The notes under the pieces were generated by a model. It was not told where the DNA came from and made no database searches. It saw only the letters and a program-made list of their open reading frames with translations. Positions 1-61,600 of a stretch of 61,600 nucleotides of DNA are shown piece after piece; position 1 is the first letter of the stretch; every line of letters begins with the position of its first letter. The position numbers were made by a program, and so were the translations under genes. The DNA is taken from the sequence record NC_048193.1; one strand, 5' to 3'. The stretch comes from Escherichia phage PTXU04.

Positions 1-245
1 GTGGCCTCTTCTCTTAAAGAGCGCCAGAAATTTTCTTCAAACGTTTACCTTAATCAAACGCTCAAAGAGTTACCTTACTCCTTCAGTTGCTCAAAGTTTA
101 ACCAATTCCCGTAGCGCTACACGAAATCTGAGAAAGCGGCAAGGTAAGACACCTGGCCTTTTTACGCAGATGCGCGGTATTTGTGTGACGCAGGTCACAG
201 TGTTAAGCTATGCAGGTGATCACAAACACATAAAGGAATGACGTC

Positions 246-20535: not shown

Positions 20536-21092
20536 TGGGCGTTAGTCAGGAATATATCGATCAGCAGAAATACTACGCTGACGCAGTACAGGCATACAAA
20601 GCCAACGGTATGAGCCACAACGCAGCCTGGAAAAAGGCGGAAGCTGACTGGGCCGCAGGTGAACGTAACGTTGCCCGGAACGCGGATACCACAGGTTACA
20701 AGCCTCAGAACGCTGATACCAAAGCGTCACAGGGTGTTGTCCCGGCGTCACAGCGTAACGAAGATGGTACCCCCATCAACACGGCAAGCTCCGGTAGTAA
20801 CAGTAGTGGCAACTCTACTGAAGCCGTGCGCTACCGTGGTTCAACATCACAGACTCGCGTGGGTACCGATACCCGTGTGCGTGGTGGTACCGAAGCATCC
20901 AAAGCTGGTCAGGGTATGGGTAACACCGATCAGGGTATGGCTGCGGCAATGAAGAGTGCCACAGGCAAACAATTCGCTGACTCCAGTGACGTTCAACCCG
21001 TGGCCTCCAAGCAGAACGCATGGCAGGGAAACCGGACTCCGGTTAATCTGGCTTCCGTACAGCAACGTGTGTTAAAGTCTATCGGTCAATAA
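20535..21092 (+). CDS. hypothetical protein
   Basis: 185 aa; coupled start (ATG overlaps upstream stop). Confidence 0.45.
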   Translation: MGVSQEYIDQQKYYADAVQAYKANGMSHNAAWKKAEADWAAGERNVARNADTTGYKPQNADTKASQGVVPASQRNEDGTPINTASSGSNSSGNSTEAVRYRGSTSQTRVGTDTRVRGGTEASKAGQGMGNTDQGMAAAMKSATGKQFADSSDVQPVASKQNAWQGNRTPVNLASVQQRVLKSIGQ

Positions 21093-39257: not shown

Positions 39258-39310
39258 GTTGTATTACTCCAGGTTGATTAAAGTTTTGTTGTGTCGTGTT
39301 GACGGAATGA

Positions 39311-39340
39311 ATCATACACTCAACCAAAAACCGATTGCAA
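39311..39340 (-). promoter_or_regulatory. putative sigma70-like promoter for 38523-39257
   Basis: On the - strand: -35 TTGCAA (39340-39335), 18-nt spacer, -10 TATGAT (39316-39311). Confidence 0.35.
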
Positions 39341-39363
39341 TACTTTTTTAAAAATTTTATTAT
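39335..39363 (+). promoter_or_regulatory. putative sigma70-like promoter for the + strand helicase/primase island
   Basis: -35 TTGCAA (39335-39340), 17-nt AT-rich spacer, -10 TATTAT (39358-39363). The palindromic -35 hexamer is shared with the divergent - strand promoter. Confidence 0.4.
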
Positions 39364-39398
39364 CCTCTTCGTCAACACACATATAAGAGAACATCGAG

Positions 39399-41999: not shown

Positions 42000-44420
42000 A
42001 TGACCTATAAGCCTGAACAGGCGCAGTTGTTTTATGCCGCGCTAACTGGAATGCAAAACCCGCCGCTCGTCTGGCAGTGGTTCTGTGACTATGACAAAGA
42101 AAGACGCGACCTGGCTGGCTGGGAATACGCGTACATGAATCCGGCAAAGCTGGCGGACCTTCAGGCTCGCGGTTGCGGCGTGTTCACATCTGTCAACGGT
42201 TCGACTACAGGCGGTCGTGGTAAGAATGACATCGACATCTTCCGTGCAGTGTTCATGGATAGTGACGGTGCTCCGTTCCCGGATCAGTGGCCTGTTCCGC
42301 CACACGCTATCGTCAAGCGCGACGACACGCATTATCACGCCTACTGGTTTATCGACGGTGACTGCTCCGCTATGGAGTGGATGATCGCACAGAAGCAGAT
42401 CGCTCTGCACTTCGGTAGCGACGAGTCAATGGTAAACCCTGACCGCGTTATGCGTGTACCGGGATTCCTCCACCAGAAGTCTCTGGACAACCGCGTTCTC
42501 TACGAACTGGCGGAACTCCACGCTGACATGCCACGCTACAAACTGCGCGACGTTATCTCACGCTTCACGTTAACCGACGAGAAGATGATGAAGATGGGCG
42601 AATGGGTGCGCCAGCGCAGCGCTCAGTACGTGGGCGGCATGGATGACTTCGACGACAACGAGCACAACTGTAAACAGTTTATCACCTATCTGAAGAACCG
42701 CGCCGAGCAATCCATCAGCGGCCAGGGTGGTAACCATGTGCTGTTTAAGACTGCCGCCGCCGGACGTGACTACCAACTGTCACCGCAGAAAACCTACGAG
42801 TTAATGCTGGACTACTGGGACGCCAACAACGAACCGCCGTGGGGCGATGAGATGTGGCCGACCGTCCAGAACGTTTACAAGTACAGCCAGAATGGTGTCG
42901 GTGCGCGCTCGTTCGCTGCACGTCTCACTGAGCAGGCCGCTATGCTGCCAGGTATGTCACTGACTCCGGTTGAGCAGGCTATCTATATGCCGGAAGCGCC
43001 AGTCGTTGACGAGAAACAACAGATGGCTGAGTCGGTAGCACGCCTGGCCGCCGCTATTGAGTCCGGCGATGACAGCATGATGCAACCTGACGACATGGTT
43101 TACAGTTCCAACCATACGCGTAACGCCATGCTGTTCATGTGGCTGCATTGCCGCAAGGGTGAGTACCTTGTGGATGACGGTATCATGTACCAGTTCAACG
43201 GTAAAATTTACGAAGCACAAGCACCGGACTTTCTGAAGGTTAAGCTGGCTACCGAGATGCAACTCAGCTTCCCGTCTGAGTCAACCATCAACGGTACCGC
43301 CAACCTCATCAAGCTGTTGCTGGCACGCTCTGCTCCGTCCAAATGGCCTGAGTGGAAAGGTGATCCCGACAAGGATACGTCCGGTTTGATTTGCTTCAAC
43401 AACGGCATCCTGGATATTAACGAGAATCTCTGGTATGAGCACACGCACTTACTGCGTATTCGTACCATTCTCCCGTTTGATTATGACTATAAGGCCACTT
43501 GCCCTACGTGGGAAAACTTCCTGCGTGAAGTGTGGGGTAACAGTAAATACGAACCGCTGATTGAACAGTTACAGATGTGGTTTGGCTATATGCTTATGGA
43601 TGATACCAGTCAACAGAAGATGCTCATCATGTCCGGTACCGGGGGCGCTGGTAAGTCGACCATCATGCGTACGCTTAACAAAATGGTAGGCGATTACAAC
43701 TGCGCGTTCCCTAACCTGAACGGTTTAACTAAAGATTCGCAACTGGCCGCTTTATTCGATAAACCTGTGGCAATCCTGAACGACGTATCTGATCCGTCTC
43801 CATCCAACGCTACCGCAGTAGTTGAACGTATTAAAGGTATCGTGGGTCAGGATAAATTAACGATTGACCGCAAATACCTGACGTCGATTGAGGTCAGTTT
43901 CCGGTGCCGTCTGAACGTTACCTGCAACGCCTTCCCGCGTTTGTCGGAATCATCGAACGCTATGCTGCGTCGTGGTCTGTTCTTCACAACCAAGCGTTCG
44001 TTTGTCGGCAAGGAAGACATGACACTGGAACCTCGTATCGACAAAGAGATGACTGGTATCATCAACTGGGCGATCGCAGGTATCAAAAAGTTACAGAAGA
44101 TTGGCAAGCTGGAAAACCACCCTTGCATGAATGACGATATTGAAATCTTCCGCATGTTGACATCGCCGCTTGAAACGTTCGTACAGGATGCACTGGTATA
44201 CCGCGAGGATGCTTACATTACCATCCCTGATCTGTGCAAACGTTACAAAGCGTGGTGCACACTGAACGAAGGATCGCGCATGTTCAGCAACCAGTCACTG
44301 ATAAGTAAGATCGGTGTATTCCCCGGCTTGAGTCTGGCGAAACGTGGCCGCGACTATGTACTGGAAGGTGCTTACCTCCGACCGGACGATGAACCAGACA
44401 ACGGAGTGATTTACGAATGA
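42000..44420 (+). CDS. DNA primase (prim-pol-like N-terminus plus P-loop NTPase C-terminus)
   Basis: 806 aa; N-terminal DIDIFRAVFMDSDGAPF ... HYHAYWF resembles bifunctional primase-polymerase; Walker A MSGTGGAGKST in the C-terminal half, as in phage/plasmid P4-type primases. Confidence 0.7.
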   Translation: MTYKPEQAQLFYAALTGMQNPPLVWQWFCDYDKERRDLAGWEYAYMNPAKLADLQARGCGVFTSVNGSTTGGRGKNDIDIFRAVFMDSDGAPFPDQWPVPPHAIVKRDDTHYHAYWFIDGDCSAMEWMIAQKQIALHFGSDESMVNPDRVMRVPGFLHQKSLDNRVLYELAELHADMPRYKLRDVISRFTLTDEKMMKMGEWVRQRSAQYVGGMDDFDDNEHNCKQFITYLKNRAEQSISGQGGNHVLFKTAAAGRDYQLSPQKTYELMLDYWDANNEPPWGDEMWPTVQNVYKYSQNGVGARSFAARLTEQAAMLPGMSLTPVEQAIYMPEAPVVDEKQQMAESVARLAAAIESGDDSMMQPDDMVYSSNHTRNAMLFMWLHCRKGEYLVDDGIMYQFNGKIYEAQAPDFLKVKLATEMQLSFPSESTINGTANLIKLLLARSAPSKWPEWKGDPDKDTSGLICFNNGILDINENLWYEHTHLLRIRTILPFDYDYKATCPTWENFLREVWGNSKYEPLIEQLQMWFGYMLMDDTSQQKMLIMSGTGGAGKSTIMRTLNKMVGDYNCAFPNLNGLTKDSQLAALFDKPVAILNDVSDPSPSNATAVVERIKGIVGQDKLTIDRKYLTSIEVSFRCRLNVTCNAFPRLSESSNAMLRRGLFFTTKRSFVGKEDMTLEPRIDKEMTGIINWAIAGIKKLQKIGKLENHPCMNDDIEIFRMLTSPLETFVQDALVYREDAYITIPDLCKRYKAWCTLNEGSRMFSNQSLISKIGVFPGLSLAKRGRDYVLEGAYLRPDDEPDNGVIYE

Positions 44421-45584: not shown

Positions 45585-45888
45585 GGCGGCTGGCCTCCTG
45601 TGCGTCAATGATTGCTTCGTTTGTGGCGACAATGAGATCCACCACATGCTTTGCGAGTACGGTCAGATTCCCGTGTCGCGCTTGATTCACCACGTTGATC
45701 GCGGTGTTGGTGTCCGTCATCATTTCCACGCCGTCAATCAGGTCGACAATGAATTTGTGGCGGTCGTACTCCCGGTTAAAGCTGGCTATGTCCGGGTGGT
45801 TATCAAGATGAAAGCAGCAGTGATAACCCTTTGGTAAATTGGCAACACGATCACCTACTCGCGGCCCGTCGATTAAAAGGATGGTCAT
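45574..45888 (-). CDS. hypothetical protein
   Basis: 104-aa ORF, translationally coupled to neighbours. Confidence 0.4.
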   Translation of the reverse strand: MTILLIDGPRVGDRVANLPKGYHCCFHLDNHPDIASFNREYDRHKFIVDLIDGVEMMTDTNTAINVVNQARHGNLTVLAKHVVDLIVATNEAIIDAQEASRHVK

Positions 45889-46136
45889 ATAAAGCTCGCC
45901 TTAATTAGCGCGGCCTCCCGGTGGCCTCTGTGAATGGTAACGACTCCAGCCGTTTCAAGTTTCTTCACCGCCTTGCGCACATGCTCTTTGTCGTAGCCGG
46001 TATAGGAGGCCAGTTCATCGAACGTTACAGGTGCGTCAGCCGATGCTATACAGCATAGCAGGTAACGACCGAACACGTTAACCTTGTGTTGCGCCATCTG
46101 GTAGTCTTCGCCCGGTGTGAATACCTTAATTGCCAC
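45885..46136 (-). CDS. winged-helix DNA-binding protein (putative transcriptional regulator)
   Basis: 83 aa; FDELASYTGYDKEHVRKAVKKLETAGVVTI resembles a MarR/winged-HTH recognition helix. Confidence 0.4.
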   Translation of the reverse strand: MAIKVFTPGEDYQMAQHKVNVFGRYLLCCIASADAPVTFDELASYTGYDKEHVRKAVKKLETAGVVTIHRGHREAALIKASFI

Positions 46137-47009: not shown

Positions 47010-47044
47010 GACTATTTACCCCATTGCTCGTTAGCGATAGGGTA

Positions 47045-47073
47045 AATATAGGTTAGTTAAATCTGACTGTCAA
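47045..47073 (-). promoter_or_regulatory. putative sigma70-like early promoter
   Basis: On the - strand: -35 TTGACA (47073-47068), 17-nt spacer, -10 TATATT (47050-47045); about 35 nt upstream of ATG 47009. Confidence 0.45.
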
Positions 47074-47078
47074 TAGAT

Positions 47079-48692: not shown

Positions 48693-48727
48693 TTTGATTT
48701 TCCTATTGTCGCGTTTGTAGAATAATG

Positions 48728-48756
48728 AATTTAGTATAGTCGTCCCTGACTGTCAA
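48728..48756 (-). promoter_or_regulatory. putative sigma70-like early promoter
   Basis: On the - strand: -35 TTGACA (48756-48751), 17-nt spacer containing CAGGGACG, -10 TAAATT (48733-48728). Confidence 0.35.
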
Positions 48757-48760
48757 GTAA

Positions 48761-53279: not shown

Positions 53280-53507
53280 TTATTTCCCCCACCATTTCTT
53301 TTTATCGTTAAGCCAGGCTTGCGCCGCTTCCAGGCTGTCTAAGTTACCAGACCATTTGCCGTTATATTGTGCGTAATAAATACCGCGCAGCTTGTGAATC
53401 TCGTTACCGTTACGATCACGATAGTAGGCGGTGTCCATGTCAGCGATGAAGTAAAACAGTTTGAAGCCGCCCGGTGTTAACGCTAAAGCCTGCTCGATGG
53501 TCATCAT
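53280..53507 (-). CDS. hypothetical protein
   Basis: 75-aa ORF. Confidence 0.4.
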   Translation of the reverse strand: MMTIEQALALTPGGFKLFYFIADMDTAYYRDRNGNEIHKLRGIYYAQYNGKWSGNLDSLEAAQAWLNDKKKWWGK

Positions 53508-53698
53508 GATATTAATTCACCTATCGTTACGTTGAGCGCCGCAGCTAACTCGGTTAGAGTTTTCAGGCGCGGGTTGTTTGCTTTCAGTACCATGAACAGA
53601 GCGCCACGTTTCCAGCCTGCGCGCCGTTCCACCTCACTAAGACTTATGGCCTCCCGCTCGGCCAGGTATTGCACACGGGCTTTTAAATTAATCGCCAT
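53504..53698 (-). CDS. HTH (XRE/Cro-like) DNA-binding protein
   Basis: ORF-track frame 53504-53758; ATG 53698 chosen because the longer form would translate through the hairpin at 53704-53718. LSEVERRAGWKRGALFMVLKANNPRLKTLTELAAALNVTIGELI is HTH-like. No clear SD. Confidence 0.4.
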   Translation of the reverse strand: MAINLKARVQYLAEREAISLSEVERRAGWKRGALFMVLKANNPRLKTLTELAAALNVTIGELIS

Positions 53699-55865: not shown

Positions 55866-55917
55866 TTTGTTTCTCTCTCTTTTTGAGGTGGGAAGCGGTA
55901 TTGCCTCCCAGTGATTT

Positions 55918-55946
55918 AAAGATACTACTAATCAGATTTAGCGTCA
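55918..55946 (-). promoter_or_regulatory. putative sigma70-like early promoter (weaker -10)
   Basis: On the - strand: -35 TTGACG (55946-55941), 17-nt spacer, -10 TATTTT (55923-55918). Confidence 0.3.
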
Positions 55947-55971
55947 AGTAATTATTTCACGAATTTTTAAA

Positions 55972-60540: not shown

Positions 60541-60578
60541 TTTGTTTCTCTCTTTCGTTAATTGGGTGGTGCAAGCTA

Positions 60579-60607
60579 ACTATAAGTAGTGGCGTCCCTG
60601 CCGTCAA
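60579..60607 (-). promoter_or_regulatory. putative sigma70-like early promoter
   Basis: On the - strand: -35 TTGACG (60607-60602), 17-nt spacer containing CAGGGACG, -10 TATAGT (60584-60579). Confidence 0.45.
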
Positions 60608-60635
60608 GTGTTTTATTTATGATTTTGTGATGCAC

Positions 60636-61352
60636 TTAACACTTTTTGCGTGTTTCCTTACGGCGGCGGCAGTAGTCGAGGTAAGCCGCTCTTAATGGTG
60701 CGGCGATATGTGGCAGGATGTCGTGATGACCTCCAGCACGTTGCACACCCATTACCATTTCGTTTAATAACCACTGTGCAAACTCCGGTCTTTCCATTAC
60801 ATCCCGACCAGTAAGGAGGCGATCGCCACCAGGCATCAAATGTTTCGCGTCAGTGTAACGAACCGACCATTGACCGCCGTCCGGTCGAGCGGCCAGGGCT
60901 GGGATTTGCTGATAGTAATGCTCACAGCCTTTAGCTGGCGCATGGTTGACCCACATGATTAAAGAGTCATCAGAATGATAAGCCTTCGCACGGTTACGCC
61001 GGAACGCATCACGCTTTACCGCTGCACAATGTGTACACCCGGCGTTAAGCGTATACTTGATTGTATTGCTGCACACCTTACACGGTCGCCCGGTGTATGT
61101 GCTCTCGCCTTTATGTACAGCGATCTCCCTGGCTAATTTAGCTTTCTGGTATTCCCTGCTCACATTCTTATCCCTTGCACACTGCACACACCCACGGCTG
61201 GAAACGTAGCGCTCGCGCTCCCCACAATGGCGGCAAGGATTCTTCGCGAGGAATACGGCAGCCTTGCGCGTCGGAAGTTGTGCCCCGTCCACGGCGTCAT
61301 CTACCAGGTCGGCCCCGTAGTGGTTCATGATGTCGTCAATGTTGATGGTCAT
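60636..61352 (-). CDS. Cys-rich (multiple CxxC) putative zinc-binding protein; first gene of the - strand early block
   Basis: 238 aa; CRHCGERE ... CVQCARD ... CKVCSNT ... CTHCAAV pairs; ACAGGAAAC RBS region; promoter-like TATAAT upstream. Confidence 0.5.
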   Translation of the reverse strand: MTINIDDIMNHYGADLVDDAVDGAQLPTRKAAVFLAKNPCRHCGERERYVSSRGCVQCARDKNVSREYQKAKLAREIAVHKGESTYTGRPCKVCSNTIKYTLNAGCTHCAAVKRDAFRRNRAKAYHSDDSLIMWVNHAPAKGCEHYYQQIPALAARPDGGQWSVRYTDAKHLMPGGDRLLTGRDVMERPEFAQWLLNEMVMGVQRAGGHHDILPHIAAPLRAAYLDYCRRRKETRKKC

Positions 61353-61385: not shown

Positions 61386-61414
61386 ATTATACCTTTATCA
61401 CGATGATTAAGTAA
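61386..61414 (-). promoter_or_regulatory. putative early promoter for the first - strand gene
   Basis: On the - strand: perfect -10 TATAAT (61391-61386) about 34 nt upstream of ATG 61352; weak -35 (TTACTT, 61414-61409). Confidence 0.35.
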
Positions 61415-61415
61415 A

Positions 61416-61574
61416 ACATTACTAACTACCGAAAACCTACATAATCACTGATTAAGGCAGGTTTACATTTTCTTAAGAGATAACTTAATCTCACCTAGCG
61501 TGAAAATAAAAACTAGACTTAACCAATGGTTTTGTAGGTTTCCCGTAGTTAGTAATGTATTACTTAATCACTGA
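61416..61574. repeat. 26-bp imperfect inverted repeat (24/26) with associated 10-bp direct repeat
   Basis: Arm 1 ACATTACTAACTACCGAAAACCTACA (61416-61441); arm 2 is its reverse complement with 2 mismatches (61533-61558); each arm is followed by TAATCACTGA (61442-61451, 61565-61574); arms are 91 bp apart. Confidence 0.6.
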
Positions 61575-61600
61575 CATTTACTACAAGAAAGCGCCAACCC

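Follow-up and report, generated by a model that had tools for sequence, protein, structure and literature searches.

What role does a long, imperfect inverted repeat (IR) play just inside the end of a phage genome, where it overlaps the first promoter of the early genes? The question arises in Escherichia phage PTXU04 (record NC_048193.1), the type member of the genus Xuquatrovirus. These E. coli podoviruses form a rare group, and the literature calls their biology largely enigmatic. The window analyzed here is the whole genome of 61,600 bp, and its gene coordinates agree with the published table. An earlier note, made from the sequence alone, had drawn attention to a 26-bp IR between the first early gene, gp92, and the right genome end and had suggested an operator, a replication origin, or part of the genome terminus. 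Neither the paper describing PTXU04 nor later studies of this phage mention a repeat, promoter, origin, or cohesive end at all, and for PTXU04 and its relatives as a group, the literature contains no description of an origin, promoter, packaging site, or regulator. The analysis presented here indicates that the IR is probably a functional control region with multiple protein-binding sites, and that a chance palindrome, an RNA gene, and the terminus itself are all improbable readings of it.

The inverted repeat

The dimensions given in the earlier note hold: two 26-nt arms (61416-61441 and 61533-61558) match at 24 positions and are separated by 91 bp. They form the core of a larger IR, in which arms of 69 nt (Table 1) are complementary at 57 positions, with 35 matches in the outer 38 nt and 22 in the inner 31 nt. 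With an ungapped score of 39, compared to 8.4 ± 1.1 (maximum, 14) in 500 dinucleotide shuffles, this IR is by far the strongest in the genome; the runner-up in the 61.6-kb window scores 14. It is present in a single copy, its arms matching nothing else in the PTXU04 genome, and a search of the locus for near-identical DNA in the phage collection returned no match. The region is AT rich (30.5% GC, compared to 52.8% for the genome; the IR regions of relatives have 28 to 31%) and sits 30 to 200 bp from the right genome end, with the edge of the IR 30 bp from the published end. One long hairpin results when the region is folded as a single strand (z = -9.1 for DNA; z = -11.9 and -76.7 kcal/mol for RNA). 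Extrusion of a cruciform from duplex DNA would be implausible, because 90 to 118 bp separate the well-matched boxes.

Conservation among relatives

Relatives with the same gene order comprise two isolates (Pondi and HelliStehle/Bas95, hereafter Bas95) and twelve metagenomic loci, 14 in total, all reached through structural genes and proteins; a scan of IMG/VR with gp1 found nothing, and the scan with TerL found only distant phages without the locus. These 14 span 60 to 99% protein identity, and the IR region does not align between them. Each has a significant IR of its own in the equivalent position, bounded by the early gene and gp1, with scores of 17.5 to 42.5 compared to ~9 ± 1 for shuffles. 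Conservation in related phages, which the earlier note had named as a check, was thus found for the position of the repeat.

Pairwise comparisons reveal what varies. Bas95 and a metagenomic contig, L027, are 90 to 95% identical over the early gene, the promoter, the 110- to 118-nt center, and the right flank, whereas two patches of ~30 to 50 nt, which are exactly the arms, are only ~50% identical; within each phage, the arms match each other at 25 of 28 (Bas95) and 32 of 33 (L027) positions. PTXU04 and L055 are ~97% identical from 61563 rightwards and ~95% identical to the left of ~61398; the outer boxes between these points are unrelated, yet self-matching within each phage. L059 and L060 differ by scattered single bases and have identical arms. 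The identical arms of this last pair, together with the swapped, self-matching arms elsewhere, indicate that the arms are discrete alleles and not mutation hot spots. Since swapped arms still match within a phage in the first two pairs, whose flanks are 93 to 97% identical, it is the match between the arms that is maintained, and no particular sequence. Arms that are self-matching yet swapped between near-identical phages constitute a natural experiment, which can separate a sequence read by a protein from symmetry that is maintained as such. Of the 129 arm mismatches, 22 are G·T on the + strand, 30 are G·T on the - strand, and 77 are neither, whereas the random ratio is 1:1:4; this near-random distribution argues against selected RNA pairing, and the mismatch pattern is consistent with two DNA copies that are kept alike. 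Arm-to-arm distances range from ~129 to 164 bp among relatives, with no helical phasing.

L027 (an ERZ808028 contig of 59,493 bp) is a mosaic. Its TerL and gp1 are 99% and 94% identical to those of PTXU04, and its gp92, IR, terminus, and first ~90 nt beyond are Bas95-like, with the breakpoint at about window position 90. This pattern shows that gp92, the IR, the terminus, and ~90 nt move as one mosaic unit into a PTXU04-like structural background.

Short repeats within and beyond the arms

The arms are studded with copies of an 8-bp repeat. All four exact copies of CTTAATCA in 61.6 kb fall in this locus (61404, 61449, 61563, and 49), as do 8 of the 57 copies of the CTTAATCA/TGATTAAG family with 0 or 1 mismatch, which lie in the 493-bp intergenic region between gp92 and gp1. 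The copy at 49 is beyond the genome end, and the repeat field therefore spans the terminus. The earlier note had described each arm as followed by a direct repeat, TAATCACTGA. Exact copies are present, one directly after the left 26-bp arm as claimed (61442-61451), the other 6 nt past the right arm (61565-61574); TAATCACTGA is not a unit of its own, however, and represents two members of the CTTAATCA/TGATTAAG family. Its left copy is not kept in the closest relative, L055. The stretch 61442-61454 has its mirror image in a local palindrome, AACCAATGGTT, in which C·G replaces T·A as a compensatory change.

Relatives carry 7 to 11 copies each of their own repeat variant: CCTAATCA occurs in 11 copies in the L059 type, five of them in tandem around the terminus-like CCCGTGGCC, and Bas95 and L027 have 7 to 8 copies of CTAACTAA. 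In the IR regions of the relatives, TAACTA occurs 29 times (3.5 expected) and CTAACT 17 times (1.5 expected), an ~8- to 11-fold excess. Repeat copies to the right of the IR center are uniformly in the + orientation. In PTXU04, L059, and L063, well-matched outer and inner arm blocks are bounded by repeats ~45 nt apart, with a poorly matched middle, a structure that fits repeats that matter and filler between them that does not.

A longer unit was observed as well. Five tandem ~26-bp copies of the form (C)AAACCTAATCAA(C/A)CG... surround CCCGTGGCC in L070 (300-470), in L071 (620-790), and in the L059/L060 intergenic regions; PTXU04 has a single copy, ACCTTAATCAAACG, at window positions 46 to 59. 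Judged by sequence, the tandem array looks like a binding array beside a cut site.

Promoters and the conserved core

The earlier note had placed the IR across a candidate promoter, and this overlap was confirmed: a sigma70-like promoter, TTTACT-18-TATAAT (P_E1; Table 1), precedes gp92 on the - strand with its -35 element inside the left arm, which covers about -35 to -100 of P_E1. An equivalent promoter is found at the same spacing from the early-gene ATG in 9 of the 14 relatives. Repeats overlap the -35/spacer region and +1 of the early promoter in PTXU04, L055, L056, L059/60, Bas95, and L027. The copies stand at the -35/spacer junction and at +1 in L059/60, Bas95, L027, and L056, and PTXU04 has a head-to-head pair in the spacer.

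The center of the IR holds an asymmetric core motif, ATAACTTAATCTCACCTAGCGTGAAAATAAAAAC, composed of a TAACTWA repeat, a -10-like TAATCT, a C-rich stretch, GCG(A/T)(A/G)(A/G), and an A/T run. In its variants, the hexamer is TAATCT, TAATAT, or TATAAT and the C-rich stretch is CACCTA or CACCC, followed by GCGAAG and the A/T run; direct TAACTWA repeats flank the core. Its orientation is identical in all 15 relatives that carry it, unlike that of an invertible promoter segment (inverton), which occurs in both orientations, and no recombinase was seen among the proteins scanned. A candidate rightward promoter within the core (Table 1) is plausible in only about half of the relatives when the -35 and -10 elements are read at a fixed distance. 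No TTATCCACA-like (DnaA) or WATCAANNNNTTR (IHF) match was seen in the core, which was read by eye without a dedicated scan tool.

Strong sigma70-type promoters of the form cTTGAC(A/G)-17-TAnnnT occupy intergenic gaps of the - strand early block. No sigma factor or RNA polymerase gene was found among the 26 proteins scanned, and a phiEco32-like sigma factor acting at TAATGTATA promoters was dropped from consideration on this ground. PTXU04 thus appears to depend on the host RNA polymerase, given these strong promoters and the lack of a polymerase or sigma gene among the scanned proteins.

Candidate proteins

In a dCas13d knock-down screen, gp92 was among 17 essential genes (Fit) and was the sole one in the 45- to 61-kb early block; 12 of the 17 are without known function. 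The only published hint on the function of gp92 is a weak HHpred label, endonuclease, in the same study. Members of the gp92 family (L001, L002, L027, and L055 to L065) have two to four tandem zinc ribbons of the form G-R/K-P-C-x2-C-G-x4-R-Y-x-S-x2-G-C-x2-C and a C-terminal domain with the pattern YHS...MWVN...RYTDAKHL...TGRDV.ERP. Between PTXU04 and Pondi, the N-terminal zinc-ribbon half of gp92 and the IR form one non-homologous block. In three box-swapped pairs, gp92 divergence is mainly N terminal, and in L059/L060 gp92 is undiverged. The repeat variant and IR architecture track the gp92 clade (two or four zinc ribbons; 57% and ~40% identity). They do not track the small terminase, which is 87 to 96% identical across phages with different arms and repeat variants. 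On sequence comparison, gp92 is the only protein found to vary with the element, and it is inherited with the IR.

The earlier note had listed gp92 and two helix-turn-helix (HTH) proteins (53504-53698 and 45885-46136) as candidate DNA-binding proteins. Both HTH proteins are conserved between PTXU04 and Pondi, that is, across differing arms, and only gp92 survives as a candidate that co-varies with the element. PTXU04 and L027 have TerL proteins that are 99% identical, gp1 is 94 to 96% identical, and the arms are unrelated; the terminase therefore does not read the arms. This exclusion covers the arms, and the short repeats remain compatible with binding of the small terminase.

The C-terminal domain of the primase-helicase (42000-44420) was considered as an arm reader and rejected, since phages whose outer boxes are unlike share this protein: the PTXU04 and L055 types are ~99% identical in it (the L055 assignment being putative), and residues 321 to 803 are nearly identical between Pondi and L065, whose outer boxes differ. 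The primase-helicase is itself a two-part mosaic between the PTXU04 and Pondi types, with residues 1 to 320 (RepB-type primase) ~98% identical and residues 321 to 806 (D5_N, helicase, and C-terminal end) 23 to 70% identical.

Genome ends and neighboring signals

In the describing paper, BAL-31 digestion indicated that the PTXU04 genome is not circularly permuted, and the contigs were linearized where most reads stopped abruptly; it is thus likely that the physical genome ends correspond to window positions 1 and 61600. The right end probably enters the cell first. Comparison of the two ends of the window found no terminal repeat, and none has been reported. The small-terminase gene, gp1 (246-992), and then TerL lie on the far side of the genome end, and on the joined map the IR is placed between divergent early (-) and late (+) gene blocks. 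Every long metagenomic contig (L055, L056, L059 to L061, L070, and L071) crosses the PTXU04 end-to-start junction and breaks elsewhere, which indicates that the ends are joined or redundant at some stage in the sequenced DNA. A short contig, L057, terminates within the right IR arm; the IR can thus break short-read assemblies. As a guide to packaging type, TerL homology gave only a weak match to T4 gp17. The genome has two Chi sites, which is the chance level, and there was no sign of Chi protecting an end.

The junction reads CGTGGCCTC, a conserved terminus motif that falls outside the IR. PTXU04 has seven copies (0.6 expected; ~10-fold excess), and Pondi has six in 48 kb. The distance from the IR to the conserved GTGG(C/G) motif is ~28 to 32 bp in Pondi, Bas95, L027, L063, and L065, and the distance to a terminus-like motif is ~10 to 80 bp in the other relatives. 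The copies of CGTGGCCTC have no common context or obvious role, and a 14-mer crossing the junction, CAACCCGTGGCCTC, recurs at 20994.

Two further signals were noted beyond the genome end. A terminator-like hairpin on the + strand at 138-163 (GGCAAGGT-AAGAC-ACCTGGCC, then TTTTT) would halt rightward transcripts over the genome end ahead of gp1; it lies within a block (~85-245) that is strongly conserved among relatives, and conservation of the stem is doubtful in L027 and L055. A perfect CRP-type site, TGTGA-N6-TCACA, at 184-199, just upstream of the small-terminase gene, is the sole copy in the genome and is kept in all relatives, with three copies in L026. It may be a late operon control site. 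A small Crp/MarR-like winged-helix protein is encoded at 45885-46136.

Table 1. Coordinates of the inverted repeat, its repeat copies, and associated features in PTXU04
Feature	Position	Strand	Remarks
gp92, first early gene	60636..61352	-	Two zinc-ribbon repeats and conserved C-terminal domain; proposed reader of the repeats
First early promoter, P_E1	61386..61415	-	TTTACT-18-TATAAT; precedes gp92
Head-to-head pair CTTTATCA-CGA-TGATTAAG	61393..61411		Fills P_E1 spacer; operator-like position
Left arm	61404..61472		Outer box 61404-61441, hypervariable between phages; inner part 61442-61472 holds palindrome TAATCAcTGATTA
Second head-to-head pair CATAATCA-C-TGATTAAG	61440..61456		Holds first TAATCACTGA
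Candidate rightward sigma70-like promoter	61462..61491	+	TTTACA-18-TAATCT, within core; predicted start at about GCG, 61498
Strict 29-nt spacer between arms	61473..61501		Center of AT-rich core
Asymmetric core motif ATAACTTAATCTCACCTAGCGTGAAAATAAAAAC	61480..61513	+	
Repeat copy CTTAATCT, 1 mismatch	61484..61491	+	In core
Right arm	61502..61570		Outer box 61533-61570 pairs with left outer box (35/38)
Repeat copy CTTAACCA, 1 mismatch	61518..61525	+	Part of local palindrome AACCAATGGTT
Exact CTTAATCA plus CTGA	61563..61574	+	Second TAATCACTGA
Left genome end	1..8	+	With base 61600 forms CGTGGCCTC, kept at same place in relatives
Exact CTTAATCA	49..56	+	Beyond genome end
Other copies of CGTGGCCTC	20999, 27313, 29884(-), 39734, 39810(-), 52543		PTXU04
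Early-block promoters	47010-47078, 48693-48760, 55866-55971, 60541-60635	-	cTTGAC(A/G)-17-TAnnnT
Divergent promoter pair	39258-39398	Both	Between two replication-gene blocks

Proposed role of the element

We tentatively favor an iteron-type origin combined with an autoregulated promoter, both read by gp92. In this view, a control region bound by protein would occupy the right genome end, and the IR would be the visible sign of its symmetry. The 8-bp CTTAATCA repeats, which flank a 30%-GC core in opposing orientations and are also found in the core of P_E1, would be bound by gp92, the adjacent, essential, and earliest-expressed protein with multiple zinc ribbons. On the head-to-head pair in the spacer of its own promoter, gp92 would autoregulate transcription; on the opposed arrays, it might nucleate DNA opening or priming, with the AT-rich core serving as the replication origin and transcription from the core possibly assisting. 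The 30 to 40 nt between the repeats in each arm would carry no sequence information, being free to drift or to be swapped between phages. The likeness of the arms could be due to arm-to-arm copying, through template switching or gene conversion, or to selection for symmetry, in which case mixed cassettes would be lost. Template switching is a known mutational process by which, in a quasi-palindrome, one arm is overwritten with a copy of the other.

All three roles suggested in the earlier note are compatible with the findings, if short of proof: a palindromic pair of 8-bp repeats lies exactly in the spacer of the first early promoter, and opposed repeat arrays around the 30%-GC core have an origin-like anatomy. 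The terminus suggestion stands as far as location is concerned, the IR being 30 bp from the published end. The IR itself is not the terminus, as CGTGGCCTC falls outside it. Its arms differ completely between phages with terminases that are 96 to 99% identical.

Iteron-type origins with an adjacent autoregulated initiator gene include pSC101 repA/ori, the P1 and F replicons, and lambda O/ori. The PTXU04 locus resembles them in that clustered short repeats adjoin an AT-rich stretch, the promoter of the adjoining essential gene contains an inverted pair of repeats, the repeat type and this gene are inherited as one mosaic module, and the repeats occur nowhere else in the genome. It departs from those systems in its protein, gp92, which carries zinc ribbons and shows no detectable homology to winged-helix Rep or O proteins, and in its repeats, which are 8 bp long instead of ~19 to 22 bp and are set in long matched arms; no DnaA or IHF boxes were found in the core as read by eye. 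The resemblance would therefore concern a possible mode of working and not family membership. Inverted asymmetric boxes around an AT-rich center, in a divergent promoter region with an adjoining candidate binder gene, also recall archaeal oriC, in which inverted ORB elements flank an unwinding element beside cdc6, and herpes simplex oriS/oriL, AT-centered palindromes between divergent genes. The proteins of both systems are unrelated to those of PTXU04, scale and organism differ, and the boxes of the PTXU04 group are hypervariable.

Several observations weigh against an origin and promoter read by gp92. The repeat field continues beyond the genome end in the direction of the terminase genes, the L059/L070 type having five tandem copies, and would fit a packaging site equally well. 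Among farther lineages, the IR of L067 is weak and L068/69 have no significant IR, though L068 keeps the central core; the symmetry is therefore not indispensable. No match of gp92 to any family, initiator, or DNA-binding protein was found in Pfam, PHROGs, NCBIfam, or PDB, and its low-confidence AlphaFold model (predicted local distance difference test score, 59) gave no match in Foldseek. The co-variation of gp92 and the boxes is based on four pairs and could reflect recombination breakpoints near the mosaic joint; between Bas95 and L027, gp92 differs by ~10% and the boxes by ~50%. The assignment of the primase to the L055 type, used above to set that protein aside, is putative.

Alternative explanations

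A purely transcriptional element, on which gp92 or another phage protein acts as an operator-binding factor or early/late switch at repeats in and upstream of P_E1, would explain the promoter overlap equally well and the number and spread of sites and the AT-rich core less well, and we consider it somewhat unlikely. Cooperative binding or arm-arm looping would shut P_E1 and perhaps activate the rightward core promoter. In keeping with this scheme, the palindromic pair fills the promoter spacer as a dyad-symmetric site between -35 and -10, with similar overlaps in relatives and repeats at -35 and +1 in six or more of them; the left arm spans the region upstream of -35; the locus lies between divergent early and late blocks, with a candidate rightward core promoter and the terminator-like hairpin at 138-163; and an essential switch factor would account for the Fit phenotype of gp92. 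Like the phi29 p4/p6 early/late switch and the gal OE/OI and lac loops, the element has inverted sites between divergent early and late blocks, with overlap of an early promoter and two groups of sites 130 to 160 bp apart. PTXU04 differs from them in having many more sites, no helical phasing over its arm-to-arm distances, and sites across the genome end; 8 to 11 sites over 400 to 500 bp exceed the needs of an operator. Moreover, the boxes are found nowhere else in the genome, hence there is no visible regulon, the HTH proteins show no co-variation with them, and the scheme would not account for the conserved AT-rich core motif. A packaging or end-processing accessory site, which we judge unlikely, could take either of two forms. 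The repeats could be bound by the small terminase on either side of the cut, as in lambda cosB/cosQ, P1 pac, or SPP1 pacL/pacR, or the IR could form a snap-back hairpin on single-stranded DNA near the end, with gp92 perhaps a structure-specific nuclease; a snap-back hairpin was reportedly proposed for duplication of the T7 terminal repeat by Chung, Nardone, and Hinkle in 1990. The proximity of the IR to the published end and to GTGG(C/G) in five relatives would agree with such a site, as would repeats on both sides of the end and beside the small-terminase gene (five of them in tandem at the terminus-like motif of the L059/L070 type), a structure kept without its sequence, an essential gene weakly labeled as an endonuclease, and contigs that cross the junction. 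The same arrangement of repeats around a cut, beside the small-terminase gene, is seen in lambda cosQ-cosN-cosB, the P1 pac hexamers, and SPP1 pacL/pacR, and the IR proposed for hairpin formation at the T7 concatemer junction is likewise placed a few tens of base pairs within the right terminus of a fixed-end podovirus genome. In PTXU04, by contrast, the arms vary freely under near-identical terminase subunits (94 to 99%), so that they are not a cos or pac site matched to the small terminase; the distance to the terminus-like motif is variable in other relatives; no terminal repeat is present or reported; gp92, the candidate nuclease, is read from the earliest sigma70 promoter, apart from the late genes; the 90- to 118-bp center makes cruciform extrusion implausible; and the pairing of the arms is interrupted by long unmatched blocks.

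A structured RNA, such as an RNase III hairpin in the early leader or a small RNA, or else a single-strand initiation signal or hairpin promoter, would account for the very stable single-strand fold, and in L026, Pondi, and L063 the 5' leader probably includes the left arm. We nonetheless regard this as highly unlikely. The strand-specific wobble test was negative, with no G·U excess among the 129 mismatches; the promoter is downstream of the IR in most relatives, where the IR is therefore not transcribed as a unit; and just 30 bp separate the IR from the DNA end. No Rfam family reached the gathering threshold, the only hit being a microRNA-precursor model at 42.9 compared to 110 bits, and a tRNA search found none. 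An N4-type hairpin promoter has a 5- to 7-bp stem, a 3-nt loop, and a virion RNA polymerase, whereas the arms here are 69 nt long, no virion or other RNA polymerase turned up among the proteins scanned, and the 2,210-amino-acid virion protein showed an LPD38 domain only. The least probable of the explanations considered is a functionless quasi-palindrome or a remnant of an insertion resembling a miniature inverted-repeat transposable element (MITE), with symmetry arising from template switching alone and tolerated in a non-coding gap. Box sequences that are unconstrained between phages, the two distant lineages without a significant IR, and the random appearance of the mismatches are what such a remnant would predict. 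It would leave unexplained the same position in 14 of 14 relatives over 60 to 99% protein identity, the conservation of the oriented core motif and the repeat family, and the overlap with a promoter; the IR is also single copy, with arms that match no other part of the genome, which sets it apart from a MITE or Correia-like element.

Implications

Elements of this kind, repeat arrays with dyad symmetry at a promoter or origin, are familiar. What appears to be new is the combination of hypervariable, self-matching boxes, a conserved oriented core, and a co-inherited, essential, orphan zinc-ribbon protein. It is possible, if doubtful, that gp92 is an unrecognized kind of site-specific DNA-binding factor built of two to four tandem zinc ribbons, acting as an initiator or a master early/late switch. 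With the dyad-symmetric repeat field at the leading end of the genome, it would form a specificity module inherited as one, and the arms of the field would be kept alike by copying, so that only their symmetry is conserved. If true, this would provide a first handle on how Xuquatrovirus phages start replication or switch transcription.

The PTXU04 group is almost unannotated, and this locus is the clearest cis-acting element in the genome. The set of cTTGAC(A/G)-17-TAnnnT promoters is a first promoter map for PTXU04. Because the element marks both the genome end and the first promoter, it should be useful for phage engineering, and the position of the IR beside gp92 offers a concrete experiment that would link an orphan essential protein to its DNA target.

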